Shown here piece by piece: positions 1,115 through 39,056 of a stretch of 44,049 nt of DNA; the first letter of the stretch is position 1; every line of letters begins with the position of its first letter. This DNA is from Craspedostauros australis. Lineage: Eukaryota. The notes under the pieces are model-generated. The model was not told the origin of the DNA and did no database searches. It saw nothing but the letters and a program-made list of their open reading frames with translations. The position numbers and the translations under genes were made by a program. The stretch covers positions 62,001 to 106,049 of the forward strand of contig JALAGF010004118.1 in assembly GCA_030167865.1 (NCBI GenBank), read 5' to 3'.

Positions 1115-2419
1115 TCAACTCCGCGACACTCCCCACGGTCGGGAATGCAATGGCCGTTGCACGACGGGCTGCTGCTGCGTCTCTTCGTCTTCAAATGCGT
1201 AACTCCACGTCTGACACCACTTCTGCATCTGCGGCACGGTGACTTCCATGCCTTGATCGCCCAGAGCCTCCCGGAACCACTGCGTCATCTGGCGCAGCTG
1301 ATTGCAAGGAATCCCCAACGACGCGATGCGTTCAAAGTAGGTCTCGTAGGACCCGCCGTGCACGGCCTGCCCCGCGACGATCATGGCCACCAAACTGAGG
1401 CGATGCGCCGTGCGCGGCACGCAGAAGGGAAGCGACGGCACGCCGCTGCTGCGCAACGTCTCGACGGAGCAGGCGCGGTCGAGGTAGATCATGGCCAGCA
1501 CGGTCTGGATGCCGTCCTGCTCAATGTCCAGCGCCTTGGCGATGTGGCGCAGGTAGGGCAGCATCTCGGGTCCCCATCGAGCGACGCCGCGGCGGATCGT
1601 TTTGCGTTTGCGGGGGGCCTTGGCGTGGAAGAGGGTGAGCTCGGTTTCTGGTTGGGATTCGCCGCGTGAGATCGGGGCGTGCCATTGTCGCGATGGATGG
1701 ACGTTGACGGGGTGGCTGCCGCCGCGCTGTTGCAGGTAGGTTGGTGTTGCTTTTGGAGGTGGTGGTGGGACTCCTGTTGGTGATGACGATGTTGTTGATG
1801 ATGTTGTTGACATCGTTGTTGATGACGTGCTCCTGCTTCCGTATTGACGCAAGCTCTGCATTGAGCTGTGTGGTGACGATGCTGATGAGGGAGGGGCGGA
1901 GATGCCATGCAGTAACCTCCTGTTCCACTCGCTCGTGAGACGCAAGGCCAGCGAGATCTGCTCCAGCGAGACCTTGGGCGGCTTGACGAAGTGCCGATCC
2001 TGCGTTGACTGTGTTAACTGCGCTGGCGGCGGAGGTGGTGGTGGGGGAGTCTGAACGGAGGCGGCGTGATGACTCTGCGGCTGCACTAGCTGTCGTTGCG
2101 GGTGCTGCTCCTGTTGTTGGTACTGTTGCTGTTGCTGTTGCTGTGGGTGATAATGATGCTGGGCATGCTGTTGTTGATGCTGATGCTGTTGATCCATCCC
2201 CTGACCATCAATGATGGCATTCGCTCCCATGTTCATGCTGCTCATGCTGGTGCCCATGTTGACATCCATGCCATCGTGCATGCTGCCCCCACGCATGAGC
2301 AGCAGCTGTGCAGGATTCCTCGACAGTTCCCATGATCTCGTGACCTGGCTGCCGGACACCATTCTCGTTGAGTGAGACACAACGAGAATGGCGGAGAGAA
2401 TCTTGACGAATGAAATCAT
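1115..2419 (-). CDS. Cyclin-like protein (PHO80/cyclin P/U-type box) with N-terminal signal peptide and Q/P/S/T-rich linker
   Basis: 434-aa ORF. The C-terminal 'TVLAMIYLDRAC...PRTAHRLSLVAMIVA' matches the PHO80-like cyclin pattern (al.YldR...nvHRL...A). The N-terminus MISFVKILSAILVVSHS is hydrophobic and signal-like. Confidence 0.7.
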   Translation of the reverse strand: MISFVKILSAILVVSHSTRMVSGSQVTRSWELSRNPAQLLLMRGGSMHDGMDVNMGTSMSSMNMGANAIIDGQGMDQQHQHQQQHAQHHYHPQQQQQQQYQQQEQHPQRQLVQPQSHHAASVQTPPPPPPPPAQLTQSTQDRHFVKPPKVSLEQISLALRLTSEWNRRLLHGISAPPSSASSPHSSMQSLRQYGSRSTSSTTMSTTSSTTSSSPTGVPPPPPKATPTYLQQRGGSHPVNVHPSRQWHAPISRGESQPETELTLFHAKAPRKRKTIRRGVARWGPEMLPYLRHIAKALDIEQDGIQTVLAMIYLDRACSVETLRSSGVPSLPFCVPRTAHRLSLVAMIVAGQAVHGGSYETYFERIASLGIPCNQLRQMTQWFREALGDQGMEVTVPQMQKWCQTWSYAFEDEETQQQPVVQRPLHSRPWGVSRS

Positions 2420-2489
2420 CTTATTGCTTGGTTGATTGATTGGGAGCTATGATGCGATGGCGTCAACCGCTGTTGTGGAAAGTGTGCGA

Positions 2490-2514
2490 AGAGAGAGAGA
2501 GAGAGAGAGAGAGA
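2490..2514. repeat. (GA)n microsatellite in the 5' region of the cyclin-like gene
   Basis: An uninterrupted run of ~12 GA units. Shorter GA/CT runs occur near 5973, 30640, 33563 and 38586. Confidence 0.9.
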
Positions 2515-3093
2515 TGGTTGTATGACTGCCGGAATGGATCTGCGAGTGTTCCGTCTGAACCTTGTCTCTTGCCGATTCGTTGTCTCCTGAAGAAGGAATT
2601 GTGTGAAATGCGTCCAAAACGGAACCACCACCAACACCAACACATCACACGCATGCCCACTCGCTCGTGCCCGCATTCACCACGCAGAGCAAAAGAGTGT
2701 TTGGCTTTCTGCTGACGACGTTGATTGACGCCAATCACACAGTCCAGGTGGCAAATGCATGTTGAATCTGCATGGGACTGCGACGTTGTTCGGTTGCGGT
2801 GAGATCATTCCCATCATTCCAGGAAACACGTGGAACTTCCAGTCATCGCATCTTGAGTCAGTTTAATCCAATTCCTACATATGACTACTGCGATCACATC
2901 ACAACCGAAGAAACAACTCAGACAAAAACACGACAAACACGACAAAGGCGAAACGACACAGAAAAATGTGACGCCATCACGAACATCGGGCGAACGACGA
3001 TGATGGTGATGATGAGATGGCGATGGCCATGATGCGAACAACGGTTGTGGCAACACCGATTCGGTGGCAACGATGACGACCACGGTCATCGTT

Positions 3094-3127
3094 TGATTGA
3101 TGCATTGATTGATGCATTGATTGATAC
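3094..3127. repeat. 12-bp minisatellite (TTGATTGATGCA) x~3 upstream of OXA1
   Basis: ttgattgatgca ttgattgatgca ttgattgata, read directly. Confidence 0.8.
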
Positions 3128-3218
3128 GGCGAACGAGGCAGACAAGAAGCCATCAACGTGGCGAACATCGGCAGCACCGACGTCCGAGGAGTCTGCGTGT
3201 ACAACCACGCTGCAAGCC

Positions 3219-4844
3219 ATGTTGCGCGTCGCATCACCGCTTGGTGGCCGATCAGCGCATCGCATCCGACGATCCGCATTGGCAGCTCTTGCCGATCGCA
3301 CTGGAATCAGCACCGACGATCGCGGCTCAAGCAATGCCACAGATGAATGGACCACCGCACGACGGCAGTTCGTGTCGGTCCACAATCACGCGCACGTGCA
3401 AAAGCAGAAGCGTTTATACAGAAATGTGGTGCTGCACAACGCCATCCCAATCCACGAACACATCGTTCACAGCAGCATGCAGAGGCGGCACATGTCGTCG
3501 TGGTTGCCGGAAGCCTTCCAACAGATCTCCATCTGGGGTGGTACGGGACATCTTCTCAAGGCCATTCACATGGACGGCACCGTGCCCTACTGGGCGTGCT
3601 TCGCGCTCATCAACGCGGGACTGCGCACGGCCCTGCTCCCTCTCGTCGTCTACAGCGCCCGCACATCGGCGCGTTTTGCCAAGGTCTCACCCGAGATACA
3701 GTTCATCATCACGCTGTTTCAGAACGATCTTAAGAAACTCAGGGAGCAGAAGAAGAGCCTTCTGGAACAGCGCTTCCTCTTCACGCAGAACTTGGAAACC
3801 ATCCGCAGCATCTACAAGCTGCACAAGATCAACCCCCTCACGGTCTTCCTCAGCCCGCTGCTGCAAATTCCATTCTTCTACTACGTCGCCGTCGATCTGC
3901 GCAAGATCGTCAACGGCGCCGATCCGGCCTTGGCTCAGGCACTGACGGAATCCTCCTTCTGGTGGTTGACCGACCTCACCGACCCCGACCCATGGTACGG
4001 TCTGCCCATGGCGGCAGGCGCCATGCTCTACTTCAACGTCGAAGTCGCGCTGGGCCGCCGCAGCCTCAGCGGACCCGCGGCTTCCAAATCCGACTTCGCC
4101 GGCCTCCTCAAGGACGCCTTCCAAACGCTGGCCGTCTTCATGCCATGCTTCGCGTCGCAATCGCCGGCCGGATTGCAGATCTACCTGCTGTCCAGCTTCA
4201 CCTTCACGCTGTTTCAGAGCGCGGCATTGCGCACCGACGCTCTGCGCGAGAGGATCGGTCTGCCGGCCATGGGGACGCCACCCGAGGAACCCAAGTACGC
4301 CAAGCAGTTCATGGAGTTCAAAAAGATGGAACAGAAAGCGCGCGAAATCCGCGGCGACGGGCCCGTGTTGGGCAAGGGTATTTTGGCGCATGGCTTCGAG
4401 ACGTCGTTTCCAGGCAGCAATCGGCCCAGTACCATTCAAGGTAGCGACGAGTCCGTGTTGAAAATGTTGCGCGAAGCGGAGGCAGAGCAGAAGGCTGAGG
4501 ATGCACCCACGATGCAAGTGGCACCCAAGACTATGTTGGGTGGCGGGCCATTCATTCATGGCATCTCGGCGCCGCCCGATCAAATCGATGAGCAGGTGGC
4601 GGCGGCGTTTGCCGAGAAGGATAATGAAGAAGCTATGGTACCATCGACTGCAACAACGACGACGGCTGCGACGACGACTACGAATTACATGGATCAGCCA
4701 ACCGAAGATGAGATGGAGGCTGCCAACAAGGGCATTCGCATGGCACCGGTTGAGGTGGACGCTATTACACCCACCAACGCCACGAAGAAATCCATCAACG
4801 TCAAGAAATTCAGATCCAAACGAGGTGGGAAGCGGAGGAGATAA
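3219..4844 (+). CDS. OXA1: Mitochondrial inner-membrane insertase, Oxa1/YidC family (541 aa)
   Basis: The first in-frame ATG is at 3219 (the ORF track starts at a TTG). It opens an R/S/A-rich mitochondrial-type presequence, MLRVASPLGGRSAHRIRRS. Motifs: 'PYWACFALINAGLRTALLPL', 'PLLQIPFF', 'WLTDLTDPDPWYGLP', 'PAGLQIY'. The long C-tail ends in a basic stretch, which favours Oxa1 over Cox18. Confidence 0.88.
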   Translation: MLRVASPLGGRSAHRIRRSALAALADRTGISTDDRGSSNATDEWTTARRQFVSVHNHAHVQKQKRLYRNVVLHNAIPIHEHIVHSSMQRRHMSSWLPEAFQQISIWGGTGHLLKAIHMDGTVPYWACFALINAGLRTALLPLVVYSARTSARFAKVSPEIQFIITLFQNDLKKLREQKKSLLEQRFLFTQNLETIRSIYKLHKINPLTVFLSPLLQIPFFYYVAVDLRKIVNGADPALAQALTESSFWWLTDLTDPDPWYGLPMAAGAMLYFNVEVALGRRSLSGPAASKSDFAGLLKDAFQTLAVFMPCFASQSPAGLQIYLLSSFTFTLFQSAALRTDALRERIGLPAMGTPPEEPKYAKQFMEFKKMEQKAREIRGDGPVLGKGILAHGFETSFPGSNRPSTIQGSDESVLKMLREAEAEQKAEDAPTMQVAPKTMLGGGPFIHGISAPPDQIDEQVAAAFAEKDNEEAMVPSTATTTTAATTTTNYMDQPTEDEMEAANKGIRMAPVEVDAITPTNATKKSINVKKFRSKRGGKRRR

Positions 4845-4884
4845 AGATCGTATAGAGCCGAGTACCCTACTTTAATAGTACTGT

Positions 4885-5861
4885 CTAGAACTCGTCGCTG
4901 CCCGCCAAATGCTCCGTATCCTGGACCTTCTTGATGAATTCGCTCTTCTCAAGGCATCCCTTGCATTCCACGCCTCTCTCGCTGAGGATCTGTCTCAACT
5001 GCTTGACCCGCAGCTTGCTGAGGTCCTTCTTTTCCAACTTTTCGGTCTTGATGGGGAACTTGACGGTGCAGATTTCCGGGTTGCTCTTGGTGATGCGCTT
5101 GCAGACCTTGAGCGACGACATGCCCAGCGAGAATGGCTGCGCGACATCGCGCTTGATGGGGTCGATGTAGTAGCAGATCTTCTTCTCGCGGGCGCTGAGG
5201 GTCTTGCCCTCGTTGGCACAGTACTTGCCGATGGCGGACTCGATCTCTGGCTTTTTGCGGGAGGCGTCCTTCGTCATCGTGGCGCGGACGTCGTCCATGA
5301 CCTTCACACAGACTGTTGTGCAGTATAATATAATATTCATTGCAGTAGTATTGCAGTATCATAGCAGTATTATTGCAGTAGTATTGCACCATTTTTGTTG
5401 TCATTGTCAACGTTGTCCATTGTATTGTCGATGGGATAAATGAAGAAGACATGCCAATAGAATTGAGATTGTGAGAACACGCGATGGTCGCGGTTAGAAA
5501 ACTAGAGACTGCAAGTACGATGGAATGCCTTTGCGTGAATCTACCACGCTCGTTGCTTCATCCTAGCATTGCACATCCGCTGCGGTATGGCCGCCGACTG
5601 TCATCTGCCACAGATCTATCCAATGCAAACACATCCAATGCAGTGCAGTTCTGTGCAGTCCACTCTGGCTCTGTACTCGCAGTCTTTGGGTCATTGCCTC
5701 CATGGTAACAGCCGCATGTCCTGCATTGGTGCAGCACATCCAAGCGAAGCCAAGAAACAAACCACGGACGTCGCCCGCACACACACACCTTCACATTCTT
5801 CGGCTGCCAATGCGACGGTGGCATAGGCCAAAAGGGCGGCAAACACGGTGATGAACTTCAT
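4885..5861 (-). CDS. MANF: MANF/ARMET-family ER protein, 2 exons (5861-5789, 5312-4885; 166 aa)
   Basis: Exon 1 encodes signal peptide MKFITVFAALLAYATVALA-AEECE. The GT..AG intron 5788-5313 joins it to give EECEVCVK (MANF CEVC). Eight Cys in MANF spacing, the SAP-like 'DLSKLRVKQLRQILSERGVECKGCLEKSEFI' with CKGC, and C-terminal SDEF (ER-retention-like). Confidence 0.93.
5313..5788 (-). other. Spliceosomal intron of MANF (476 nt, phase 1)
   Basis: GT donor at 5788 and CAG acceptor ending at 5313. Splicing restores the CEVC motif in frame. Confidence 0.9.
5339..5388. repeat. 12-bp degenerate minisatellite (ATTGCAGTAGT-like) x~4 inside the MANF intron
   Basis: attgcagtagt attgcagtatc atagcagtatt attgcagtagt attgcac. 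Confidence 0.75.
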
Positions 5862-6673
5862 TTTTCGTTGGAATTAGAGGGTGGTGTTGGATGGATGGGT
5901 CGATGTTGTTGTGGCTACTCTCCACTGATGTTGCTGATGGTCTTTCTTGGTGAGGTGGAGATGGTCATGGAAGAGAGAGAGAGAGACGTTGCGCCGCTTC
6001 GTTGGGCTTGTGGTTCTCAACGGCAAAAAGACTGCACAGCTCAAAATTGGTTTTCGGCCACCTCCGCCGCAATCGAACGCAAAACAACGACTGAATCGTT
6101 GTGTGTTGCGTAGATTGCCACGTGGAGGCTCGTGATATCTATGTGGTGGGACTGAAAAAGAACAATGGATCACGAGTCCAACAGAAGCAAAAAGAGGATG
6201 AACGATGATCTGCAGAGATGTGGTGGGATCCAAAAGAAGCAACCACGAGGCGCCAGCATGGGTGCCCATCACAGCTGCGTGTGGCTCGTATCCCACAACG
6301 AACTTGCCATTCATTCACCTCCATTCCACAATTCCGCAGCTGTTGTTCTGTTCCCACAACGCTGTCAGCACCAGTGTCTCAACCACTACCAGCACATTCG
6401 CACAATACGCTCGTGCAATACCAACCACATTGCCAGGACCATCAATCGATCGACCGATCTCCACGTGTCCATCGTCGCCACCATCTTGGTGCACTCTTGT
6501 GTGAGGCAACCCCCATCGCGCAAGGGAAAGCTTGGAAAGACAGCTGGATCCTCTGCAGAGAACAACTCGGTTTCTGCCTCCAAACCCGTTCACCCAAGCA
6601 GCATTCAACCAGAGTGAATCCGGAGGAACAGACACTCGGCACACGCTTGCTCCACAGATCATATTCGTCGACC

Positions 6674-9600
6674 ATGATGCGGCAAGGATCGCTTCACCGA
6701 GGCACTCGCCGAGGTCTGAGTTCGATGTTGAAGCTCACGCTGATAGCGTCGGTTCTCTTATCATCTCTCCTCTCTTCAACGACCACCAGCACAAGCAGTG
6801 GCACTAGCACCGCCATGGGCATACCATGCTTAGCATCAGCCTTCAAGCCAATGTTGCAACCAAGGATACCGCTCACCAAATTTCCAACTTTGCTGGTGCG
6901 AGGTGGCGATGCCGGCAGCACGGCCAACGAAAAGGACCTGCCCACGTCCACTCACGATGACGATGAAGACAAGGGCAACAGCGAACGTAATGGCGATGAG
7001 GAACGCAACGATGTTGGCGTTGACAAGGACGACGGCGACGATGACGGCCTTGATGGCACCAAGAACGCCAGCGAAGAGGACGACAAGAAGAAGCATTCCA
7101 GCGTCGAAGACTACGTGGCCGCCATGAAAGCCAAAGACGAGCAACAGCAACATCATCAACAGGATGATGATGCATCTCATTCCGAGTCTCAAACTCAGCA
7201 ATCGTCAAACAAGGATGATACCGAGCCCACCCACGATTCGAATGGAGGCGATCGCAACGATTCATCAGCGCCGCAGTCACATGCAGACTCGGAGCCATCG
7301 AGCAGCGACAGCAAAAAGAGCAGTGACGTGGCGGATGATGCCTCCGTCGGCGTCAAGTCGCACAAGAAGTCAAATGCAGTCGGCGACGCGGACGGCGACA
7401 GCGACGACGATGATGACGAGGATCCGGATGACAGCGACCTGTCATCAGACTTCAGCGAAGAGTGGGAAGATCTCGACGATCTTGCCCCACATCATCGCGC
7501 ATCACAGCAGTCTCGCAGTGATCAGCAGGATCTTCCAGATGACAGCTACATCATCGAACCGGAGGTGCAGCTTGAAGTCGAACTGTTGCAGAGCACCATT
7601 CCCGCTGCTGGCACTAGCAATGCGGTCAACGAAGATGCCGGCACTCGCAGCAGCGAAACGCACGACAACAAACACAGCGATGCGTACGGCAACGACGCGG
7701 ATGATGATGGCGACGAGACTGTTGCCGCCTCATCCTCATCCAAGCCCTCCAGAGCTGCCAGATCGGGTGGCGTCGGGATTCGTCTCGGGCGAGGCCGGCG
7801 GAACAGTCGTCAACGTGGCAAGAACTCAGAACGCAAGCGCCGTTCGCAGGAAGCTGTTGCGGATGACGACGATGTCAAACTGATCGAGGCCTGGATGCCC
7901 CACCTGTACTTTCCACCACGCGACAGCACCCTGTCCTACCTCGCAGACAATGGACGCATGATCGATGCCGCCTCCAAGTCACGACTGGACAGACGAACAT
8001 TGTACGGCAGCTTGCTCATGGAATGGGGATGCTCCCCGCAATCCTCGCGCAGGTCGGGTGGAGCGCGCAAGTTCTTTCCGCACAAGACGACGCAGGAACT
8101 GCAGGCGGCACTTGCCGTCGCGACGCAGCCGCACTGGCGCAAAGCTACACCGCGCACCAACGGTATCATGATGTACACTGAGCTTGACAACAAGGACAAG
8201 AACAAGCCCATGACATTGAGCATGCAGGAAACTGTGGCCATGTCTTTGGTAAGTTATGCACGAGTGATGCCGGAATCGTAACCGCGAAAGCACCTATCGT
8301 ACAGATGGAACATAATGCTCTCGTTCGATGCCAACTAACACTATTCCGCTTGTCGTTTCATTTCAATTCATGCCTTTTGTTGGTGAATGGTTCTTCTGCC
8401 GATGTCGCATTTGGCGCTTACACGATTGATCACGCACATGCGCATTCCAAACAAACCTGCACAGGCACACTCAATGGGCTGCGGCATGCTCATCCTGGAT
8501 GATCAAGTGCTGAACAAAGTGCGGCAGAAGATGGTCGAAGCAGGCGTGAGCGACGGCAAGTTGAAACCTGCTTCACTGTTGAAAACTCTGCTCAACGCAG
8601 CAAAGGCAGGCAAGGTTGCGCAACCACCGACGGCACGAGCCACTGCCTCCATCTCATCGTGCATGCGGCACGACATGTCGTGTGGTCTGGACGATCAATA
8701 CGACGAACGGGCCATCGTCAGTATGGAGGCCATGGTGGAATGGGAGGCTGCAGAAACGAAAGAAGATACGAAGGCCAACGCATCCGAGGACAACGCATCT
8801 TTGCCACTCCCGCTGGTGATCTTCATCCGCACGTCGTCATCTGGCTCCTTGCTCAAGAGCAAGACCGCCATGGAACTTCTCATCCACGAGTGCACAGCCG
8901 ACGACAGTATCCATCTCGTCACGCTCGGCAAGGGCATCGACGAGTGGACCGATTCATTGCCACAGAATCGGAACAGCCACAGTGAGGTGGGGCAAGGACA
9001 GGATATGAGCGGTTCCTTGGGCCAGACGCCTTTCGACAACGTGGGAGGTTCCAACGGCAACAAACAAGGACAGTTTGGCTTCACTTCCCAACACAACAAC
9101 GCGTCAGGACAGAACGATCCACCTGGTTCACGCCGGTTCAACATTTTCCTGTCCCGCACAACCGACGCCAACGGTCATCTTGGAATCTTTGGTGCAATCG
9201 CGCCGCCTCAGGTCGGCAACCTGTTCCCCCACATGATGGCCATGCAGACGCGCGAAAAGCTGGAGCGACAGCACATTGAGAATTCGCCAGCCAAGGAAGA
9301 GCTGGAACGGTGGCAGAGGATGATGGAGCAGCAGCAGGAGGGGAACGATCACATAGACCCCACCCAAATGTCCTCCGTCCGCTTCTTCAACGCTAGCCTG
9401 TCCATCGGGTACCAAGACCAAAACGAAGACGAAGGCAGCCGCAACTCGCGCAGTGAGCAGTACGATGAGCAGCACGATGATCAAGATCAGACCGGCTTCC
9501 AACCGTGGGCGCATCCGCCACCGCATATCGTGGAGAAGGCATTGCAGCACTCGATGTCATGGATATTGGACGATCTATCGCAAATTGGCAAGGACGAGCG

Positions 9601-12062
9601 CGACGAGAGATCGGAGCAGCCTCCAAACGTCGTTTCACCCAAAGATCTGTCTCCCGATTTCCACACGGCGTTTGCGCAGGTGTTGCGAACCGAGAATCTC
9701 CGTCGTGGCATCGCCGAGAATTTGTCGCGTGCCGCACCAGCACTCTCTGATCCCAAATGCCATGGCATCATGCTCAGCATCTTCGTTCCGCCGCAGGGCA
9801 CCGGACAAAGAGGAAGGATGCCCACGGCACCGGGCCAAGGCAACAACAACGGCAACGCGCCGAACAACTCCAACATGAACGGTTGGTTCAACGAAGTGTT
9901 GCAAAGCCAGGACAAGGAGCGCAGGGATGCAGTCGCCGACTCCGATGACGGCAGCGACGAGGAAGAGTCGGCCAAGGACCGGCAAAAGCGAGTGAGAACC
10001 ATGGCAGCGGCTGCGGCTGTGATGGCGGCCAACCAGGCCCAGACGAACGACGCCCGTGATCGGGCCAAGTCATCTGAAAACAAAGCCGAGCGCAACCTCG
10101 CCAAGCTGGAATCCATCTGCCGTCCGATCGATATTGACGTCCCCACAGACCCTGTGCGTGCCAAGTCATGGGAGGCGTGGATCAACCGAGAGCGTGGGTC
10201 CATCGTGTTCCGCATGAATCGGCGGGCGCTCAGCGAAGAATTGATCCAGCATATGCTGGCCTTGGAACTGCACACGGGTACGCGGGGCGCGGGTTCTGCA
10301 TTGCGCCAAATGCTCAGCGTCCGCGATTTGGAGTCGGACATGGACAGAATCGTCCGATGTGCCGTGGAGCTGGAGGCATCCAAGGGTTTGAGGAAGCACG
10401 AAATGCCAAACACCGCCCACGAGAATGACCTGAAGCTCCAGATCGACGAGTCATTGATTCAATTGAATCTCAATGTTGACGATGACGAATGCGGACCTGA
10501 TGGTACTCAAGGAGGTACTTCTGACAACAGTGACGGAGCCACAGAAGCCGCGTCAACATCAAGCACGGGAACAGATACATCCGAACAACGCGATGACGAC
10601 AAGCAAGATGCCAAGTCGGGGCCATCGAATTGGCAATACCTCCACCCATCCAGTTTGGAGTCCGCGCTGACGATGGTTTGCCAGATCAGTCCCTCTCCAG
10701 CAGGAGGTCTGTCGCTTTCCGGTTCCATTGCCGGGGCTCACCGCAGCCGAGACGAAATCTCGAACCTGGCGCAGGACAAGCACGAGCGCGCCTTGGTTTC
10801 GCAAGTTGTCTCGCCGCAGGACATTGGCGTCACGTACGACATGATCGGTGGACTCTCGCAGGTGAAGGAGCTGTTGCGACAGAGCATCACGTACCCGCTC
10901 AAATTCCCGCATCTCTACAGCGAAGGTATTGCGCGAGAAGCAGTGAAAGGAGTCCTGTTGTTTGGGCCACCAGGTAAGTTGGTGCTGCTGCTATTGCTGC
11001 TGCTATATTTGTGTGGGCTTGCTCTGTTGTGCTCTACTCCCTTGACCACAACGTGCTGAGGGAACATGCCATAAAACTCGCGCTTACACTTGTTGAGAAT
11101 GACCTTGTGGATTTGCTGCCGACCCGATGCCATCCTGCTCGCGCGCTGCCTTGTTGTTGATGCACACGCACAAACGGATGCACATGTGGATACGAATGCT
11201 CGACCGCATTGCATCACGCCATGACCTTGTGTGCGCATCACATTGCGTCACGATAGGTACGGGTAAAACGATGCTCGCCAAGGCCGTCGCAACAGAGGGC
11301 GGCGCAAGCTTCTTGAGCGTCGATGCCTCCTCGGTGGAGAATAAGTGGCTCGGAGAGTCTGAGAAGAATGCCAAGGCCGTCTTCACCCTCGCACGGCGAT
11401 TGGCGCCATGCGTGATCTTTATCGACGAGGTGGATTCTCTGCTCTCCAGTCGAGAGGGCAGCTCCGATGATTCGGCGCACGGCACGTTGACAAGCGTGAA
11501 GACGACGATGATGAGCGAATGGGATGGACTGAACTCCGGCACCAACGGAAACGGCGAGGCTGGATCCGATCGCGTGGTTGTGATCGGATCGACCAACAGA
11601 CCATTTGATCTGGACGAAGCCGTGTTGAGACGATTCCCACGCAGAATCCTCGTGGATCTGCCAGACATGCAGAGCCGCAAGGAGATCCTGGAGGTGACGC
11701 TGGCGGAAAATCGTCTGGATCCTGCAGTGAACCTGACGGAGATCTCGGAACGCCTGGATGGCTACACAGGATCCGACATCAAGGAGGTGTGTCGAGAGGC
11801 GGTCGTGCAGATCAGCCACGAGCAGGCCAAGCTGCTGGATCAAGGATTTCTGGATGCGGAGGAAGATATCACGGAGGGTTCGCTGCAGCGACTACGACCT
11901 GTGACGACGGCAGACTTTGAGAGTGCGCTGACCAAGCTCAAGCGCAGCGTTTCGGAGAAGGGACGCGAGCTGGCGCGGGTGTGGGAATGGAACGACGAGT
12001 ACGGTGAGATCAAGAAAGAAAAGACGAACAAGATGCCCCATCTCATGAACATGTACCTGTAG
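6674..12062 (+). CDS. Large AAA+ ATPase of the Msp1/ATAD1/spastin clade (plant-type long form), 3 exons (6674-8248, 8465-10973, 11257-12062; ~1629 aa)
   Basis: The spliced Walker A reads GPPGTGKT. Also present: pore loop NKWLGE, Walker B IFIDEVD, 'MSEWDGL', 'TNRPFDLDEAVLRRFPRR' and C-terminal 'WNDEYGE'. The exon 1/2 junction gives 'QETVAMSLAHSMGCGMLILDD', resembling the degenerate first module of plant long AAA proteins. The start may instead be ATG 6677 or 6725. Confidence 0.88.
8249..8464 (+). other. Intron 1 of AAA ATPase (phase 0)
   Basis: GTAAGT donor at 8249 and ACAG acceptor ending at 8464. Both flanking ORFs share a frame. Confidence 0.8.
10974..11256 (+). other. Intron 2 of AAA ATPase (phase 1, interrupts Walker A)
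   Basis: GTAAGT donor at 10974 and TAG acceptor ending at 11256. Splicing rebuilds GPPG-TGKT. Confidence 0.93.
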
Positions 12063-12930
12063 ATCGGAGCGCATCCCGAAAGCACGTCACCATCTATTCT
12101 GCCAAGCAGCGAGGATGCGAGAGATTGCTACTCCACCCTCGCGGTATGCGGAGCAGAGCAGCACAAAGTCGTGCATTGTATAAATATCAATCAACCTTCC
12201 AACCAAGCTTCTCGAGTCACTCATGTGGAGTCCTCCTATAATAGCAAAGATAGAATATATGGATGCCCTGTGTAATTCGACATGATGAAGCATGCTTTGA
12301 AGTGTGCCTCTGCCAGCATCTCTCTCCCTTTGCGGTAACAAGGAGAAGCGTGATCTGCCCACATCGGTCGTTCGCCAAGGTAGCTAAAGTGACGCTGGAC
12401 GAATACGGCGAATTTCATGTGCAGAGTGTCCACTGGAACAAGTACGACATTCTTCGTGATTGATGGTAGATTTTGGACACCTCATCAGCAATGGTGATTT
12501 TCAAAAGAGCCAGTTTCCTCTTTGTGATCGAAAAGCTGGAACGCTTGTTCGACGGCCCAAACCACAACGGCGAACGCTGCACAAGACACACGCACAAAAG
12601 ACCCACGATCGTGTCTTTCCACGCCTATTTTTCCGCAGAAGCGACAAAAATCGTGGAAGGCATCCGACGAGCACAAACCCAAACCAGGCCAAGTGAGAGA
12701 CAAGAGGGGGCATCTCCTTGCTGTATTGTATCGCATTGCATTGTGCATCACGACGTAACGAAAGGGACTCAGCGCTGCTCCCTTGTTGCTGGCACCGCGA
12801 CGGTTGGGCAATTGCGACTCTGCAAGGATACCAAGCAGACCAACAGAGACCTACGTGCACAATCACCGTAGTAGCGCTTGGTCGCCCACAACGCAAACAC
12901 CACAAAACCACCATTGAAGCGACCGACAAA

Positions 12931-15900
12931 ATGGCGTCTCCGGAACACTCGCAATCGTACTCGGATGACGACGAAGTCGATGATGGACAGAGCTACGATT
13001 CGGACGAGAGGAGCTTCTACACGGACGAAGAAGGCAGTCAGGCATCGCGGCGTCGGCGGCGGCAGCAGCAAGCGAAGCGGCATCCGGAGGATGACAGAAG
13101 TGATGCATCCGGCAGCTACGATAGTCGTGGTTCCGAAGGATCCTTTCAGGATGGCGATCGATCGTACTACGATGATGACGATCGATCGTACCGCAGCGAC
13201 GACGACAGATCGTACAGAAGCGGCGATGATAGATCGTATCGCAGCGAAGACGACGACAGGTCGTACCGAAGCGAGGATGACGATCGATCGTACCGAAGTG
13301 GCGACAGCCGATACGACGATGGTGGCAGTCGGGGCTCCCAGTCCTTCCGAGATAGCGAGCGGTCGTTCCATAGCGGAGACGATTCGCAGCCGTCGCCCAG
13401 ACGCGCAAGCAAGGATGACGAGGACTACGACGAAGATTACGACGACGAATTCGATGACGATAGCTTTGCCAACGATCGAGGCGACGACAGATCTCAGGGC
13501 AGTTACGACAGTCGCGAAGACGACTACGACGATGACGATGGCAGTAGACGGCGAGGTGGGCCCGCGAAGAACGATAGTGGCAAGAAGAGCGGCGGCAGCG
13601 AGAAGGAAAAGGGCGAGGGCATGAAGAAGGGAGATGATAGCGCAGGATCCTTAGACATCAACGCACCGTCATTCCATGACGACAATGAGGATTCGTTCGG
13701 AAACGAGCACTCGTACGGAGATGATCGTTCGGACAGAAGCGATCATCCCAGAGAAGACATGAAGGAATCGCAGCACTCGTCCTACCACTCTCGCAATTCG
13801 GGGCGCGACAGTTACCACAGCCGCAGCAGTCGAAGCGGAGCAAGAGACCGCGATCATGATGACGACCGCAGCGACCGGGACTGTCCAGATGATCAGTCTG
13901 ACGCCTTCGACGACGACGACGACCGATCCTATTTCGATGGTAGCGAAGACAGCGAGTCTCAGCAGTCGTTTGCGACGGATGAAGACGAGTTCCTGGCGAA
14001 TGCGCGCGACAGGAAAGCTGCAAGTCCCACGGGGAGTAGCCGGCGGCGTGATGACGAGGATGGCGCAAGTGATCGCGACCGTGATGCCAACGACAACGGC
14101 GATGGCGATGACAGATTCGATAGCCGGCATTCAGCTGGCTCCTTTGGAGAGGAATCGTACGGGGACGAGGACTCTCGATCTGGCCGAGACTTTGCCAGCC
14201 CGAAGCGAGCAGATGAAGGCTTCCATGATGGCAGCGATCGATCGGATTCACGCGGAAGCAAGTATTCGGATCGTGATGACTCTTACCGAGATGACGGGAG
14301 CTTCACGTCAAATCGAAGCCTCAGCAAGCAATCCCATGCATCTGGTCAAAAGACAGCGGAAGCTTCGCACGAGGACGGCGTGCATAGTTCCCATCGCTCA
14401 TTTGCAGACGCCAGCAGCAAGGGTCGTTACGAAGATAGCTACCACAGCGAAGAAGATAATGAGGCTTCTCGCAGCGAACGCAACGAAATGCCTCGTGATA
14501 ATGACCCGTTCATGGGATCTGGCACCTCCTTCAGTAATGCCAGCTTTGGTGGCAAGAAGAACGACTCTGTGTTCCAAAAATCACCAGAGGCCTCCAATCA
14601 ATCAAGCGCCGATTCCGACGGTTTCGGGACACCTTCTGCTACCAAGGCGGCGCAGATCGACGGCGATGATAGCAGTCGAGGGGATGACTTCGATTTCGGC
14701 GCGAAAGATGGAGGGTTTGGTGATGATGCAGCCTTCCCAACGAACGCAAGCTTTGGTGATTCAGAACACACAGAAGACGAGGACGGCAGCAAGGGTGATA
14801 ATGGCATGGGCAAAAGCGAAGGAAGCAGCAGCAACCACGATGGCGACGCCAGCGATGCTGACCACAGCGACGACGATGATGCATTCCGGTCCACGAACGA
14901 TGACTTCGCAGCGCCAGTCAAGACGCATGAAGATAGCGACGACGATTCTGCATCAGCTGCCAAACCTGACGCCGATGCTTTTCAATTCGGAAACGATTTC
15001 GATGATGGCGCGTTTGACGACGATCCCTTCGGTAGTGCCAGCGAGAATCAAGACCAGCGCAACGGTGACAACGATGGTGAGGATGAAGCCAAAAGCAAGA
15101 GCAACGGCAATGTGGCGAAAGACGACGGTCAACAGAATGGGTTTGGTGCCACCGACTTCTCTAGCGCTGGATTTGGGAGCGATGCGTTCTCGGATGCGTT
15201 CGATAATGACCCCTTCGCAAATGCCGATGAAAAGAAGAACGATACAGACGAGATGAGTGGTCGTGGCGGCAACGACGGCGATGATCCCTTCGGGAAACAG
15301 TCAGATGACGACTTCTTCTCCAAGAGCGGGTCACAGGCGTTCGGCACAGAAGGCGATTTCTTTGACGACAAGAAGCAAAATGACGATCCTTTCGCGAACG
15401 ACGATTTCGCATTCGACGATGCTTTCGCCGCAGAGCCGGCCAAGACAACTGCGCCTGATGCGAGCGACCATGACAAACCTGAGGAAGATGACCAATCTGA
15501 GCAAGACGATCAGCCCAGTCCTGAAGACGTGCCCTCGAATGCTTCTGAATCTCACTCCGCAGGTGATAACAGCTTCTCGCAGCACATGGATGAGGATTCA
15601 TTGGCAGAAATTGACAAGGACGATGCGTCGCCGCACAGGGTCCGAGAGGAAGATGATGACAAGGCTGATCACAGAGTCGACGACGAAGCCAGCCAATACT
15701 CAGATGACTACGACAAAAAGAATGACGAGAACGGCGACGACAGCAACAAGGGCCCCGAAGGCGACCACGCCCATGACTCCTCCCCAAAAGGCAAGCAGAT
15801 TGAACAACTCACGCCGCCCACAGATGTTGACGATGGAGGTGCGTCTCCTGTGGAAACGACGGAAGAAACGGACGTCATCTCGCGAGGCTCGTCAAGATCG

Positions 15901-18900
15901 TTCGATTCCTTTGACGACAGACAAGGCAGCCGCGGACCTTTGGAAGGCGACGATGCGTCATTCCAGTCCTCTCGTTATTCACAGGATGATCGATCGGGAA
16001 GGAGTCAAAGATCTCACTCGCATTCGCACTCACACTCGCAGTCCGATTACTCAAGATCTCAAGATTCCAGAGACCAATCGAAGTACGATCAGGAAGGAGA
16101 ACGAAGACATCATGATGATCACCGCAATGATCATGACGACGATGGCGGTAGCGCATATGTCGATGAGGCTTCTTACCATTCCTCTGATCGTTCCTCGTAC
16201 CAGTCCAGATCGCATTCGGGATCGCAATCGTACGTGAATTCCCCTTCGCAGCGATCTCGTGACGCATCACCACACCAGTCACCGTCACAGCAGCCTCAGT
16301 CTCGATCTCAGTCCCCAGTGTCACGCAGTTCGCGTGGTTCGAAGTCGACTTACTCTCAGCAGCAAAATAGCGCCGCGGCTCCGCCGCTTTTGCCGTCACC
16401 TCGCGATGATTCGTCGGCGGATGACGACTCCAGTTTCAAGCTCGAAATGGAACCCGAAGAGCCAGATGAAGACTTGGAGACCTCCATTCGTCTCGGCGAA
16501 GTATTCGGAAAGCCAAATGATTTCTTTGATGACCAAAGCCGCGACAGCACGGAGGCAGACGATGCTGGCGAACTTGAGGAGGTGGAACCCGAAAACCAAG
16601 ATACTGAAGTTGACGGTGGCGACGAAGAGGACGAAGACAGCCCCGAAAAAAAGAGGAAGCCCATTGATGACGATGAAGTAGAAGAAGAAGGCGAATTTGA
16701 TGACGAGACGCGGCAGTCAAGATCTTCATCTCAATATGACGAGGTGCAGCGGCCTGAGCAACGACCGCAGACTCAGGACTCTGTTGGTTCATCATATCAG
16801 TCCAAGGGCACGTATCTGTCAGCTGAAGATTCAAGGGATAATCTTCCGCAAGGAAGCCAAACGTACAGTGACGGGGGACACGACAAGAACGATGCGACAT
16901 CTTCGCGCTACGAAGACAGCTACGAGAATAGCTACGACGATGCTTCGCGGTACTCATCAAAGTACAGTACTGCAGAATACACTGAGCAAAGCAGAGAGAC
17001 GGACGTAGAAACAGCGAGCAGGAAGAGTTCAAGAAGTTATCGATCACGAGGCAGCGACAGCGTATCCCGCTCAAGCTCGAAGAAGAGTAGGAGCAAACAC
17101 AAAGGCAAAGGGAAGACCAAACGACGCAGCAAGCCTTCACCAGGTCGCGGATCTAATGAAAGACAAGATGCTTCCGTCAATGCTTCCATCAATGGATCTG
17201 TGTCAGCAGTGCCATCGGGACAGGATGATACCAGCGTTGATGATGTCGAGTTGGCATCAGTGGAAGAAGATTCTCGCGAGATGATCGAGGACGGAGACGC
17301 GCCGCTGCATGCAGATTACTCCAACGGCAGCGAGTACGAACAGTCCATTCCACAACATGCCGAAGGTGATGGCGACGAGTACGGGACTGAAGACGATGAC
17401 AGGAGTGCGAGTGCGAGTGCGAGTGCGAGCAAAAGCCGTAGCAAGAGCAAGAGCAAGAATGCCAGCCGTTCGGGGAGGAGCAGTGATTCTCGAGCAACCA
17501 GCATGTACTCGATGGAGTCTGAGCTGCGGGAAGCATCGACGATGGACTCCCAGGGTCTTCTCGCGGCGTCTGCTGAGGATGCGCACAGCTACGTTTCAGG
17601 TGGTCGCTCGACGAACGACGCAACTGCATCCATCGCGAAGTCCTCAAAGTCATCCAAATCGAAGAGACGGAAGAAAAGAAGGAAGAAACGCAGCAATAAG
17701 AGCGAAGCGTTGATCAGCCTATCGGAGAATATCCACGAGACGATGTTGGTTATGGAGGAGGAAGCAGAGAACAAGAGCGAGTACTCCGGATCGAAGAATC
17801 AGAACGAAGACAACGAGGCACATGACCTCCTGCACAGCTTCGATGCGTTGCTTGTGGTGCTCGATCAACTGTCTGATGAACTCGAGCTGATATCCACGTT
17901 CGGGAAGTCAAAGAAGAAGAAGAACACGAGCGCGCTTGTGTCCGTTCAGGCCCTCGAGGCGGTCATTAGCTTTGATCACGTCCTCGATGAGATTTACGAC
18001 CAACTGCGACGCATCATCGAGGACTGCTTTATCGACCCACCAGATGATGAGATGGCTGACATGCTGAAACGGCTGACTGCCCTCGTGGATCTTCTGAACG
18101 AAACAACCCACAGGGTGGGAGAGAAGCAGGAATGGAACACGAGAGCGGAGACCGTGTACGTGACGCTCATCGAGCTGATGGAGAGAGAGTCGCTGGAGCT
18201 GAACTGTTACTTCGATGAGCAGGAAACTCCTGACTACGAGCTTTCGGATAGCATCTACGAGGCATGGCAGCGGTCGGAGAACAGGATGGAGCTCGACCAA
18301 TTGATGCATGCTGCCGAGCTAATCGATTTCCGCCAGATTTGCTACGAAGTGCTCATCACCATGGATCAATGGTGCCCGGATACCGATATCCTGATGGACA
18401 TCTGTGCCATTGATCCATCTCTCCTCGAGGAGGATCCCATCGACTTCTTGCCGGAGGAGGAGTTACCAGTCATCCCCGAGGCAGCGGAGAATATCCTTGA
18501 TCAGATCAACGGGGATCCGCTGCCGAGGCCGAGAGTGATGGCCAGCATCCTCCGCCGGATCCTCCCACCACGAGCCGTCGTTGACAAGACCGTCCTGGAT
18601 TACTTCACAAGCATCCGAAATACTCTCGATTGCCCCCTCGACCTTCCCATGACCAATGTCGTATCGATCACCTCAGTCCCCGAATCCTTGGACCAAGCCG
18701 ATGCGCTGGGTGTCGGAGGCGTGGGCAAGTCGACTTTGGCTGCCATGGTTGCCGCACGAGAGGATGTTCGCAATTACTTCGAGGATGGTGTGCTCTGGGT
18801 CTACGTTGGGGATACGGAGCTGAACTACAAACGCTACACGCAATGTTTGACGGAGCTGATCTCACAGCTGGATTCCCAGAACTACCCGCTTGTTTTTCCG

Positions 18901-21900
18901 GAGCTCATCCACACACCTGGCGAGCCAATGACGAAACGACGTCGACGGGAGGCTGGTTTCATGATATTTGCAAGGGACACAGTCGCCAGCATCCTCAAGG
19001 ACAAGTGCGTCTTGGTCATCCTTGACAACATCTGTTTCGAACCCGACCTGAGTTGGTTCGACTTCACCGCCTTGCCCGATGACGGTGTCGAGGACTTCGA
19101 ATCAGTCTGTGCGATTGTGGCAACCACGCGATATCGCGATCTCCTCGGGGCTGCTGATACCGTTGAAATCGACATGTTCGACGAAGCCGACGCAATCAGC
19201 CTTTTCATTGAAGAATCGGGCGATCTCTCCCACAGCCTGTTGGCAGAATCGAAGAAGGCGAGACAGATCGTTCAAGAATGCGCGAATCACCCCCTGACCG
19301 TAAAGAGCGTCGGCCGTTGGTTACATGCGAAGCACATGTCGGCTGGCATCGTGAGCGGGATCGACGAAATCCACGAGATGCTCGTGAAGTCGTCGGATTC
19401 TCCTTCCGCAGGTGATCAGGCATCGACTGACATGCTGTACGAGGTCCTGAAGCTCAGTCTATCCCCAGATGTGAATGGCAACCTAACCATTGCCGTCAAG
19501 TTTTGCCTGGCATCCTTCGTCACGGTTTTCTGCGCGAAGGAGTACGTGTCGGACTACAACCTCGTGGAACCAACGCCGCTCATACCAACGCGGATGATGG
19601 AACTGCTATTCGAGACGCTGCTGGAGCTCAACGAAAGCTCGTTGCTGAAGGAAGGCAGCCTGTTCTCGAGCCAGAAAGAGTCGGCGCGAGCTATCGTTCC
19701 GACAGCACTATGCTCGTTGGGCGTTCTGCAGCTCCACAACTTCCCCTGGTCCACGGATGGAGAAGTTCAAGAAATCCACGAGTTTTACCAGATCACTCAC
19801 TTCATCTACCAGGAGTACGGAGAATACCTGTGCAACGAAGACGAAACGCTGACGTACATCACCAAGAACGCGGAACGCGAATGGAACCGAGCATTCGTCG
19901 ATGCCTACCTGGCCGAGGTCGAGGCGTGGAATGACAACATCGACGACCCTGGCCATTCGTACGCGCTCGAGATGATGGTGGCGCACATGATCCGCGGTGG
20001 CATGCACAAGGAGGCCGCCGGTCTGCTGGCGAACAAGAAATTCGTGCTGGGGCGGTTGCTCTCCTTTGGTCGCAGGGTGACGACATCGAGGCACATCAAG
20101 GACTGCGAGCTGCTGTACAAGGTCCTTGTGGAGCACCCCGGCAAGGGCCAAGCCCGACTCGAACCTCGCAAGGTGATGAAGCAAGCGTACCGAACGCTCG
20201 GTGGTTTGCTGGCCTTCAACGATGAAAACGACACTGAAGAAGAGCTCATGCAACGCAATGACGACATCGCGTGGTCTCATTATGAGATTGGATTTTCATT
20301 GGCCGAGAAACGGTGCTGGGATGCTGCCATCGCACACTGGGAAACGAGCCACGAGCTGTTCCTGTCCACGAAGGGGCCCGTGGAGCTCGTTGCCGGCATC
20401 CACTACAGCATTGGCGTCGTTTACGCCGAGATGAACGAGTACGAGAAGTCCCTCGATTCGCTCAAGAAGTGCTTGCGGATCCGTGGCACGATCCACGAGG
20501 AGAATCACAGCCTGTACGCCCTCACGATCCAGAAGATCGGCGACGTGTTCCTTGGAATGAGCGACTACTACGAGGCGATGGAAAGCTACAAATGGGCTCT
20601 GGACATCATGTACAAGGAGCCCAGCTTGCACCGTGACCACATGGGCGACATTCTCGACAACAAGGGCGTCATCCACAAGAACAAGGGCGAGAACGAGGAG
20701 GCGTTGAAGTGCCACGAGGAAGCGCTGCGGTCGAAGCAGATCGTGTTCGGCCAGGAGCATCCTGAGCTGGCAGTCACTTACGCGCACATTGGCCGCTGCC
20801 TGTCGGACAGCGGCGAGAGAGCAAGCGCCATCAACCATTACGACGAGGCCATCCATTTGCTGGAGCTTGACCCCGAAGGAGGGGCAGAACGCGACGCTGA
20901 AATCCAGGCGATCGAAGGTATGCTCTACAATCTGGAAGAAGACGAGGAGATGAGCGTGAAGTGTTACGAGAAGGCTCTGCAGATCCTCGTCATGAAGGTC
21001 CCGTACCGGAAGGAGAAGATCGCCTCTCTATTGCATGTGATCGGCTGTATCTACCTGAAGCGTGGGGAAGCGCGCAAGGCCATGAAGCTGTTCGAGGAGA
21101 GCCTGCAGGCACGGCGCAAGGTGCTGGGCTTCGTTCATCTCGACGTCGCCAACACTCTGTTCGTGATGTCGTATCTCCACCAGACGCGCAACCGCGTGGA
21201 CAAGGCGCTGAAGTGCCTGGAGGAGGCTCTCAAGATCCGGCAGCTGCGACTGCCGCGCAGCGAGAAGGTGGCCGTCACGTACGCCAAGATCGGGACGTTC
21301 GCCAAGGAGATTGGCAAGACCCGAAAGGCGGAACGAGCCTTCAAGGAGGCGTTGAAGATCCGCACCGAGCTGCACGGCGAGAAGCACGAGGATGTGGCAG
21401 AGATCAACCAGGAGCTCGGAGATCTGATGAACGAGCTCGGCGAGTACGAATCGGCGATGGAGAACTACATGAAGGTGTTCCAGCTGCGCACGGAGCAGCT
21501 CGGGTCGGATCACATCCTGGTTGCGGAGACCTTGCACAGCATGGGCTTCACATTGCACCATCAGGGCAAGACGGATCGTGCCATCGGGTGCTTCAAGGAG
21601 AGTCTGGTGATTCGCGCGTACTACCACGGCGAGGATTCATCCGAGGTGGCAGAGACGCTGAACATGCTGGGCTTCCTCACGGCCAAGAAGGGAGATCTGA
21701 ACGACGCCATGACCTTCCTGTGGGACGCGCTGCGCATCCGCAAGCGCCACAACGACGAGATCCGTGTGTCGGAGACTTTGAAGAACATTGGCAACACCCA
21801 CCGCGAGAAGAAGGAGTTCGACCTGGCGTTGGAATGCTACGAGAAATGCCTCCAAATCCGCCGCACGGAGCTCGGTGATGATCACGAAAAGGTCGCCGAC

Positions 21901-38344: not shown

Positions 38345-39056
38345 TGTCTCTTGTTTCCTGCTACAATCCCTGTTCTTTCTCACAGCGTATATCAGGATCG
38401 TGAAGTGGAGAGTATCCGAATTCCTGATGATCAATCAATGAATTGATGTATCGATTCTGAATGCAACCTTCTCAAGCACACGGTCTCTCTTGTTGGCTGT
38501 TCCTCTTTTTGTGTTGGCTTCTTCCACATCACAGTTCTGTTCTCGATCCTTGGTTTCCTTGGTGGTGGCGATGGTGGTGGTTGGCAGAGAGAGAGAGAGC
38601 GGCGGGAAGAGGTGTGGGCGAACCTGACACATCAAAAGCAGCAACATCGTTGGTGGGTCGGCAGAACAGATTGGTCGTCTCGTTGGGTTTTGGTGGTTGT
38701 TGGACGAACTGACGACGTACGGACTGATTCAAATTATCCACGACCCAAAGGGTGTCAACGAAAGCGGAAACTGCCCAACACCCACAATTCGTTGACTTCC
38801 GACGTCTTTTCTCGCGTAGATGTTGTTGGGGGTGTCACCATCGCAGGCGCATCTGCACAGTCGTCAACGATCGACACCAACCAGCTGGCGCTGTTGCGTC
38901 CTTGATCGTCACTCGTATAGTACTCGTGTGTGTATTACTACACACACACACACAAGTATCCTCTGACAACGAGATCATTTCCAACACAGTTACACCAACA
39001 TCCAAATACTCCTTCACACTTCGCAACCACACTTCACCGGATCCCCCTTGAAACGA

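Follow-up and report, generated by a model that had tools for sequence, protein, structure and literature searches.

The closest described counterparts of the element considered here are the bipartite signals of proteins of the periplastidal compartment (PPC), which are defined by the residue that follows the signal peptide (not F, W, Y or L) and by charge, a C-terminal motif being unmentioned in the available passages of the two papers concerned (PMC3101018, PMC12136025). The transit-peptide-like segments (TPLs) of such signals have been called 'not conserved and poorly characterized' (PMC3101018); the peptidase acting on them is hypothetical, and 'TPLs are somehow then removed' (PMC5756292). 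An ASAFAP motif is known from complex-plastid presequences (PMC12136025, PMC3774753), and the best predictor of PPC proteins recovers only about 25% of them (PMC12136025). In this study, a stretch of Craspedostauros australis DNA (44,049 nucleotides, contig JALAGF010004118.1, positions 62,001 to 106,049; the whole stretch is called the window) was analysed for a motif ending in Arg-Gly-Gly (RGG) at the close of the putative presequences of two proteins, a cyclin-like protein and an AAA ATPase. Bipartite PPC presequences are already known; the RGG mark at their end would be the new element.

An RGG motif at the end of two putative presequences

The window is apparent nuclear DNA of a raphid pennate diatom, as indicated by the relatives of its proteins, the best-named of which come from Cylindrotheca, Nitzschia, Pseudo-nitzschia, Seminavis, Fistulifera and Mayamaea. 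A preliminary description of the window had reported the heptapeptides LLLMRGG and TLLVRGG in two unrelated proteins, and translation confirmed both, the former at 2305-2285 (minus strand) in the cyclin-like protein and the latter at 6887-6907 (plus strand) in a Vps4/ATAD1-type AAA ATPase. The position described for the motif, after a putative signal and before low-complexity sequence, was borne out as well: both copies lie downstream of an N-terminal hydrophobic stretch and directly ahead of a low-complexity mature part, with a linker of 28 residues in the cyclin-like protein and of 22 residues after ASA|F in the AAA protein. The term 'signal peptide' denotes throughout a putative feature, recognised with a Kyte-Doolittle window heuristic and by reading of the sequence.

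The cyclin-like gene (1115-2419, minus strand) is a single open reading frame (ORF) of 434 amino acids (aa) in the ORF list, with 118 diatom relatives at E<=1e-3. The protein has a hydrophobic start, MISFVKILSAILVV, in which residues 1-17 (MISFVKILSAILVVSHS, 2369-2419) form the putative signal peptide for the endoplasmic reticulum (ER), as assigned heuristically from the hydrophobic N-terminus; a cut after SHS would place T at the +1 position. The transit-peptide-like linker that follows (residues 18-45, 2285-2368) ends in LLLMRGG (residues 39-45; RGG 43-45, at 2285-2293) and gives way to M/G/Q/H-rich sequence. No Pfam family matched the window protein at E<=1; among the aligned relatives, Cyclin_N was found in 5/26 and the PHO80-like Cyclin family (PF08613) in 4/26. 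An AlphaFold2 model of the C-terminal part (mean pLDDT, the predicted local distance difference test score, of 72, and >87 across the helical core), together with Foldseek, pointed to a helical cyclin-box-like domain at 1175-1564 (minus strand), the top PDB matches being cyclin Y, Pho80, cyclin C and cyclin K with weak E-values of 0.04-1, and a profile search of PDB sequences returned nothing relevant. The label 'cyclin-like' is weakly supported for the window protein.

The AAA gene lies on the plus strand in three exons. Exon 1 (6674-8248, 525 codons from the ATG at 6674 to a GT donor at 8249) encodes the presequence and a long acidic low-complexity region; exon 2 (8465-10972, between an AG acceptor at 8463-8464 and a GT donor at 10973) encodes a family-specific middle region and the start of the AAA domain; and exon 3 (11258-12062, acceptor read from the sequence) encodes the part from Walker A onward, as recognised with Pfam, with the lid, a Vps4_C-like end and the stop. 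A basic stretch opens the protein and is followed by the hydrophobic core of the putative signal peptide (residues 18-35, 6725-6778, assigned heuristically), an ASAF junction (residues 54-57, 6833-6844) that on reading resembles the ASAFAP signal-peptide cleavage motif, and the transit-peptide-like stretch FKPMLQPRIPLTKFPTLLVRGG (6842-6907), 22 residues with no acidic and four basic ones, before several hundred acidic low-complexity residues. This stretch ends in TLLVRGG (residues 72-78; RGG 76-78, at 6899-6907), 22 residues beyond ASA|F. The C-terminus matched Pfam families AAA (PF00004, 3e-32), AAA_lid_3 (PF17862, 7.8e-9) and Vps4_C (PF09336, 2.1e-4), and this combination of domain, lid and Vps4_C-like end places the predicted protein in the Vps4/katanin/ATAD1 group.

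To assess conservation, the relatives of both proteins were examined. A word-indexed search with the cyclin-like protein gave 118 matches, 111 of which begin with M; an N-terminal hydrophobic segment is present in 67 of these, and 57/67 carry RGG within 160 residues after it, when shuffles of the same residues lead one to expect 1.85. Simple RGG counts are inflated in this family by a second RGG, which in the window protein lies at residue 232 (1724-1732, minus strand; QQRGGSHPVNVHPS) within a family-conserved stretch and which appears in some relatives as RGGQ, RGGD or RGGG. Because a few of the 57 represent this internal copy, the counts were re-anchored on ExNRxL, the first conserved motif. 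RGG lies upstream of ExNRxL in 66 of the 111 relatives that bear it, at a median of 42 residues; another 14 are N-terminally short models, and 31 lack RGG, including two with PGGST, two with RAG, both Fistulifera copies and a sub-family that has a signal peptide without the motif. Ser follows RGG in 63/66 sequences and is itself followed by T (42) or S (14). The residue before R is P in 27, L in 12, A in 11, F in 5, V in 4 and W in 4, and D-P-[PA]-RGG is seen in most relatives. The hydrophobic start closes in 35/118 relatives with a small-x-small-x junction, then Y/F/W and [NSDG]-P, an ASAFAP-like arrangement. It was also noticed that Phatr2_43938 of Phaeodactylum tricornutum, listed in supplement file 9 of PMC12136025, has a 25-residue window that ends in HHHQPRGGS after an SG|F junction; by its sequence this could be the cyclin-like family's representative in Phaeodactylum, and the list that contains it resembles one of plastid-type windows.

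In the case of the AAA ATPase, exon 2 served as the query of an exhaustive search, and the best 150 of 527 relatives were examined, 56 of which reach at least 550 aa. Among these matches, a hydrophobic N-terminus was found in 26 of the 51 that start with M, and 13/26 of those of at least 550 aa carry RGG after the hydrophobic segment, versus 0.94 expected. In a second, word-indexed search (best 120 of 196 relatives; 27 of at least 1150 aa, of which 20 have a hydrophobic start), RGG was present in 14/20 of the listed relatives with such a start. A YVAAM-like conserved motif after the acidic start served as the anchor, and in 33 sequences it is preceded by 25 residues or more. RGG is present there in 23/33, and the remaining ten comprise five with RAG at the same spot, three false anchors, one RGDG and one NGG. 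Before R stand W (6), L (3), V (2) and I, Y, M and F (1 each), as against T (4), P (3) and S (1); after GG stand G (8), A (6), S (5), D (2), T (1) and N (1), that is, small or acidic residues throughout and never Pro. Several relatives share with the window protein an F at the junction. As a separate observation, the database models of four AAA relatives (P0125, P0346, P0380 and P0331) begin at or a few residues before RGG/RAG (e.g., M-RGG) and are probably N-terminally truncated, with the presequence lost.

Within the window itself, [LIVMF]3-RGG occurs in the first 100 aa of 2/14 gene N-termini (P(>=2) = 5e-5 in 20,000 composition-preserving shuffles), and bare RGG reached at least two of the 14 with P = 0.044 under the same shuffling. 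Taken alone, this test is weak, and the relatives were examined instead because it is post hoc. As a negative control, the family of a PDZ protein with an ASAF-type plastid presequence (gene at 32370-33020) was scored, and RGG was found nowhere in the 81 relatives with M and a hydrophobic start among the 120 matches listed. Conservation in the relatives together with this control family is the decisive evidence, and the shared motif is not a product of chance. The proposal that the motif is a conserved, position-specific feature of the presequence end is thereby upheld (57/67 cyclin relatives, 23/33 AAA relatives and 0/81 controls); the hydrophobic character first attributed to the positions before R describes the window pair and most of the AAA family but does not extend to the cyclin family, with its P27 and A11 of 66.

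Recurrence on published periplastidal proteins and in-vivo N-termini

The motif was sought on candidate PPC proteins of Thalassiosira pseudonana and Guillardia theta in file 4 of the ASAFind 2.0 supplement (PMC12136025), of which 62/71 rows and the list of RGG matches were available; the entries of this file are BLAST-derived candidates, of which not all have been localised. Among the T. pseudonana rows that TargetP marks 'SP', RGG ends the N-terminal extension in 5/22, namely sCdc48, sCdc48-2, Der1-1, sSec14 and TrxH (PMC12136025), where it stands just ahead of a conserved or acidic part; sSec14, a listed PPC protein, has F at +1 together with RGG. In ptDUP and sPUB of the same species, which are over-long gene models, RGG likewise precedes the conserved domains. 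The corresponding G. theta rows contain RGG in 7/17 cases (Cdc48, EF-1alpha, 14-3-3, RRM1, CyP, Ubc8 and the starch-synthase-like ugg-t); in four of these seven the form is LRLRGG, which is the tail of ubiquitin, and the others have MRLRGG, SLRGG and PLRGG. In G. theta EF-1alpha, GKEK directly follows RGG, and this we take to be the usual mature start of EF-1alpha. Over all sets, more than 15 families unrelated to one another have the motif at the border of a variable presequence with a conserved mature part.

A cryptophyte set of mainly stromal proteins (file 2 of PMC12136025, 28/30 RGG occurrences available) was inspected in the same way. L-R-[LM]-R-G-G is present there in three presequences without Phe at +1, which by their sequences belong to a fructose-bisphosphatase-like protein, a thioredoxin and a class-II aldolase, and among those 28 occurrences none was found in a stromal presequence of the Phe type. 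The suggestion that the motif may serve a class of ER, periplastid or plastid-envelope proteins finds a counterpart here, since published PPC proteins carry it both in a diatom and in a cryptophyte. These data, and the motif, its position and its conservation in the two window families, are observations; that the motif marks a class of periplastid-type presequences is the conclusion drawn from them, and it is a likely cut site.

Published in-vivo N-termini of T. pseudonana, obtained by terminal amine isotopic labelling of substrates (TAILS), are listed by Joint Genome Institute (JGI) id in Table S5 of PMC3774753. In that table the entry for JGI 21460, a homologue of ptDUP, gives SDSDSFTQQR as an acetylated N-terminus beginning at position 233 (2 spectra); counting on the supplement sequence places R230-G231-G232 immediately before it, so the protein starts in vivo exactly after RGG. 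Its downstream sequence includes a GNTCYLNS-type stretch, presumably the Cys box of ubiquitin-specific proteases (USPs). JGI 25775, a homologue of ptE3P, lacks RGG in its presequence and begins where the signal peptide is predicted to be cut, at position 25 in the JGI model. Table S5 holds no entry for ten further PPC ids (22697, 22298, 9466, 1526, 19991, 8632, 4435, 270405, 2811 and 24247), and it contains six rows of peptides that start with GGS, GGD, GGA, GGT, GGG or GGN, the preceding residues not being visible. A text search for 'RGG' in the seven supplementary files of PMC3774753 matched only the peptide lists (files 3-5) and nothing in files 6-7, which by the numbering used in the paper should carry its tables of plastid proteins and transit peptides, as far as these files were accessible, and the available text of the paper does not discuss ubiquitin or the ptDUP, ptE3P and 24761 proteins.

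Candidate processing routes and the surroundings of the motif

It seems to us reasonably probable, and somewhat more so than its negation, that RGG is a processing or retention mark of PPC-type presequences that is cut by a Gly-Gly-specific protease, and the motif probably marks the point at which the presequence is removed. [quoted passage not shown] Invariant Gly-Gly with a small residue behind it, Arg often preceded by a hydrophobic residue and the LRLRGG of cryptophytes point to a Gly-Gly-specific papain-fold enzyme, and a deubiquitinase-like cysteine protease of the PPC is the leading candidate because the tail imitates the ubiquitin C-terminus LRLRGG. An activity of this specificity must exist in the PPC, because PPC ubiquitin is a fusion ending in RGG|X (G. 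theta 'Ubi'). Work by Hempel in 2010 is said to have placed a USP-type deubiquitinase in the diatom PPC, and short LRGG peptides can be cleaved by some deubiquitinases. Removal of the transit-peptide-like part inside the PPC may stop onward import to the stroma, which would reconcile the Phe/Tyr/Trp junctions of both families and of sSec14 with residence in the PPC. On these grounds we infer that both window proteins reside in the PPC and are cleaved after GG, and likewise the class of the enzyme and the role in retention.

A more specific form of the same idea, which we put forward tentatively and as the less probable of outcomes, is mimicry of the ubiquitin tail in PPC import. A deubiquitinase of the symbiont-specific ER-associated-degradation-like machinery (SELMA), ptDUP or a relative, would cut off a pseudo-ubiquitin tail that reads LRLRGG in cryptophytes and x-RGG in diatoms. 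With this one cut the ubiquitinated transit-peptide-like segment would be lost, the protein matured and its stay in the PPC decided even with a Phe start, the TPL peptidase then being a deubiquitinase.

Several results, however, weigh against the proposed Gly-Gly cleavage or against PPC residence. Deubiquitinases normally require a folded ubiquitin body, which is absent here, and RAG variants would be poor deubiquitinase substrates. Only one N-terminus directly after RGG is on record, that of JGI 21460. In JGI 24761, which has a TargetP signal-peptide cut at 23 and which ASAFind 2 calls 'not plastid, not ppc' (PPC score 0.408, cut-off 0.49), free N-termini were recorded at 57 (RGGCK, 2 spectra) and 58 (GGCK, 4 spectra), that is, 34-35 residues past the predicted signal-peptide cut; cleavage there therefore falls before or after R and not after GG. 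The prediction that N-termini would be found after GG thus held in the published TAILS data for JGI 21460 and failed for JGI 24761. The 'SP' rows of the PPC candidate list are without the motif in 17/22 cases in T. pseudonana and in 10/17 in G. theta, and these are mostly members of ER-type families (DnaJ proteins, trypsin-like proteases, glutaredoxin) or membrane proteins. The aromatic +1 residue in the AAA protein (ASA|F), in several of its relatives and in the 35/118 cyclin relatives weakens the case further: the accepted rule predicts the stroma for such proteins, not the PPC, and ASAFind would call them plastid. Linkers between signal peptide and RGG in the cyclin relatives were observed to be rich in H/Q/N/P, to begin with a conserved T-[YFW]-[NS]-P-x-[YH]-H-P-Q and, in the examples read, to be without lysine, which is unusual for a transit peptide. 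Lysines were reportedly found necessary for SELMA transport by Lau in 2015, and the lysine-free linkers among the examples read weaken the case in this respect too.

The strongest competitor, which we regard as unlikely on balance, is that the site is a real processing site and that the enzyme is not deubiquitinase-like: either an M16 peptidase of the type of the mitochondrial and stromal processing peptidases (MPP and SPP) reading Arg at -3/-2, or a trypsin-like PPC protease cutting at Arg, with aminopeptidase trimming to a stable (e.g., acetylated) N-terminus. The ragged R57 and G58 N-termini of JGI 24761 favour such an Arg-directed peptidase with trimming, MPP prefers Arg at -2 (PMC3774753), the trypsin-like sTLP-1 is among the PPC candidates (PMC12136025), and the occurrence of RAG in five AAA relatives and of RAG or PGG in a few cyclin relatives, together with the lack of a conserved hydrophobic residue before R in the cyclin family, fits an enzyme of this kind. 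It would not, however, demand the match over six residues to the ubiquitin tail that cryptophyte presequences show, Gly-Gly is invariant while the flanks vary, the ptDUP homologue begins exactly after GG, and stromal sites of diatoms follow another consensus (A/S at -3, L at -2).

It is improbable that RGG stays uncut, whether as a recognition or retention element (e.g., one bound by SELMA or by a PPC factor that reads ubiquitin-like tails) or as the first functional residues of the mature protein. Conservation in the cyclin family does run past the motif (RGG-S-T-M, with S in 63/66 and T in 42/66), and the mature N-terminus of JGI 24761 retains RGG or GG; the ptDUP homologue, on the other hand, has lost the motif in vivo, and its location, in over 15 unrelated families, where variable sequence meets conserved sequence would be hard to reconcile with this explanation. 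Still less probable, with only a slim chance of being correct, is that the hydrophobic stretch remains uncleaved and anchors the protein in a membrane, as in AAA proteins of the Msp1/ATAD1 type; most of the protein would then lie on the side of the host cytosol, with RGG a juxtamembrane feature unrelated to plastid import. The AAA domain does belong, by Pfam and by JGI names, to the Vps4/ATAD1 group, distant AAA relatives have a hydrophobic N-terminus without RGG, and basic residues lie downstream of the hydrophobic stretch in several AAA relatives; the RGG architecture, however, is common to soluble PPC proteins with classical signal peptides, ASAF-like junctions exist, and in the cyclin family the basic residues precede the hydrophobic core, as they do in cleaved signal peptides. 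Coincidence between two low-complexity-rich proteins, to which the post hoc nature of the original comparison and the bare-RGG value of P = 0.044 might be thought to lend support, is already contradicted by conservation in both families above shuffles, by the control at 0/81 and by the recurrence on published PPC proteins, and its probability is negligible.

Three further explanations of local sequence were rejected: pyruvoyl-type G|S self-cleavage (the P1' residue is not Ser in the AAA family), an RGG/RG-box RNA-binding region (AAA exon 1 has one RGG, and the two of the cyclin-like protein lie 189 residues apart) and, in the linkers of the cyclin family, an NPxY sorting motif, which is unconserved.

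A conserved RGG closing PPC presequences would provide a cut site open to testing, together with a candidate class of enzyme linked to SELMA, the ubiquitin-based translocon, and would be a simple sequence feature with which prediction of the PPC proteome could be improved in diatoms and cryptophytes. A cyclin-box protein and a large ATAD1/Vps4-like AAA ATPase would join the cargo as families not expected there, and the mark would suggest how proteins with a plastid-type Phe could stay in the PPC. Should mimicry of the ubiquitin tail also hold, the TPL peptidase would be a deubiquitinase and RGG a specific PPC predictor. The pathway had been suggested to be possibly under-described; no account of the motif was found in the literature searched, and papers in subscription journals (e.g., Gould 2006, Hempel 2010 and Lau 2015) may bear on the point; the sole related mention in the sources available is an RGG before the ubiquitin-like domain of Toxoplasma PUBL (PMC5487736).

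Elsewhere in the window, two other RGG strings were set aside: NTLIRGG at 43757-43771 (minus strand) is noise in a 73-codon frame without Met, and HMIRGGM at 19987-20001 is not N-terminal and lies deep within a giant ORF. Between the two motif-bearing genes lies a MANF/ARMET homologue (4885-5862, minus strand; ARMET_C 3.1e-15, ARMET_N 1.1e-8) with a signal-peptide exon. One RNA-like run (X1, its kind guessed) gave contigs only at 1100-1725 and over the MANF gene, and none over either presequence; a contig of this run links 5312 to 5789 and confirms a 476-nt GT..AG intron of the MANF gene on the minus strand. (GA)n microsatellites are present at 2479-2525 and at about 5975-5993, in the upstream regions of the cyclin-like and MANF genes. 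An open frame of 3,276 codons (12697-22527, plus strand), recognised by sequence reading, shows by eye acidic DDRSYRS-type repeats, a P-loop GVGGVGKSTLA reminiscent of NB-ARC/STAND NTPases and an extended series of TPR-like repeats. Classical plastid-type junctions without RGG were seen in two more genes, at 37457-38434 (minus strand, VTG|F) and at 32370-33020 (plus strand, TNG|F), the latter being the PDZ gene of the control family.

Comparison with described systems

The more distant parallels lie outside plastid import into diatoms. PEXEL (RxLxE/Q/D) and RXLR are short motifs that stand 20-40 residues past the signal-peptide cut, direct a protein to a further compartment and can be cut sites; they differ from the motif described here in sequence, destination and lineage. 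Bacteriocin double-glycine leaders, which are handled by C39 peptidase domains, and the LXGG sites of coronavirus PLpro have in common a hydrophobic-x-Gly-Gly leader removed by a papain-fold cysteine protease that reads only the tail. These systems, however, are bacterial or viral and unrelated to plastid import.

Closer at hand is the diatom stromal cleavage site, whose consensus has A/S at -3 and L at -2, then a residue that is small or charged at -1, and A/S/M at +1 (Huesgen 2013, PMC3774753). The window sites resemble it in lying about 20 residues past the signal-peptide cut and in the net negative charge that follows the mature N-terminus; unlike it, they read L-V-R-G-G|D and L-M-R-G-G|S and do not match the consensus.

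With the tails of ubiquitin, NEDD8 and ISG15 (LRLRGG/LRGG) the motif shares Gly-Gly at P2-P1 and Arg at P3, and a hydrophobic P4 in the window pair (M, V) and much of the AAA family. The likeness is fullest in the G. theta presequences with LRLRGG, and in one case extends to an in-vivo N-terminus after GG. In contrast to ubiquitin, 15-100 residues of variable linker precede the motif and there is no ubiquitin fold; the linkers of 22-28 residues in the window are too short for a fold of 70 residues, so no beta-grasp fold precedes RGG there. P or A before R in many cyclin members and the RAG variants also depart from the ubiquitin tail.

The nearest match is with the bipartite PPC signals with which this account began (Moog 2011, PMC3101018; PMC12136025). 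Both families depart from these in that the AAA protein and many relatives of the two carry F/Y/W at +1. The hydrophobic signal, the linker of short to medium length and a cytosol-type cargo comparable with Cdc48, 14-3-3 and EF-1alpha are nevertheless held in common, and many of the listed PPC proteins end their linker in RGG too.

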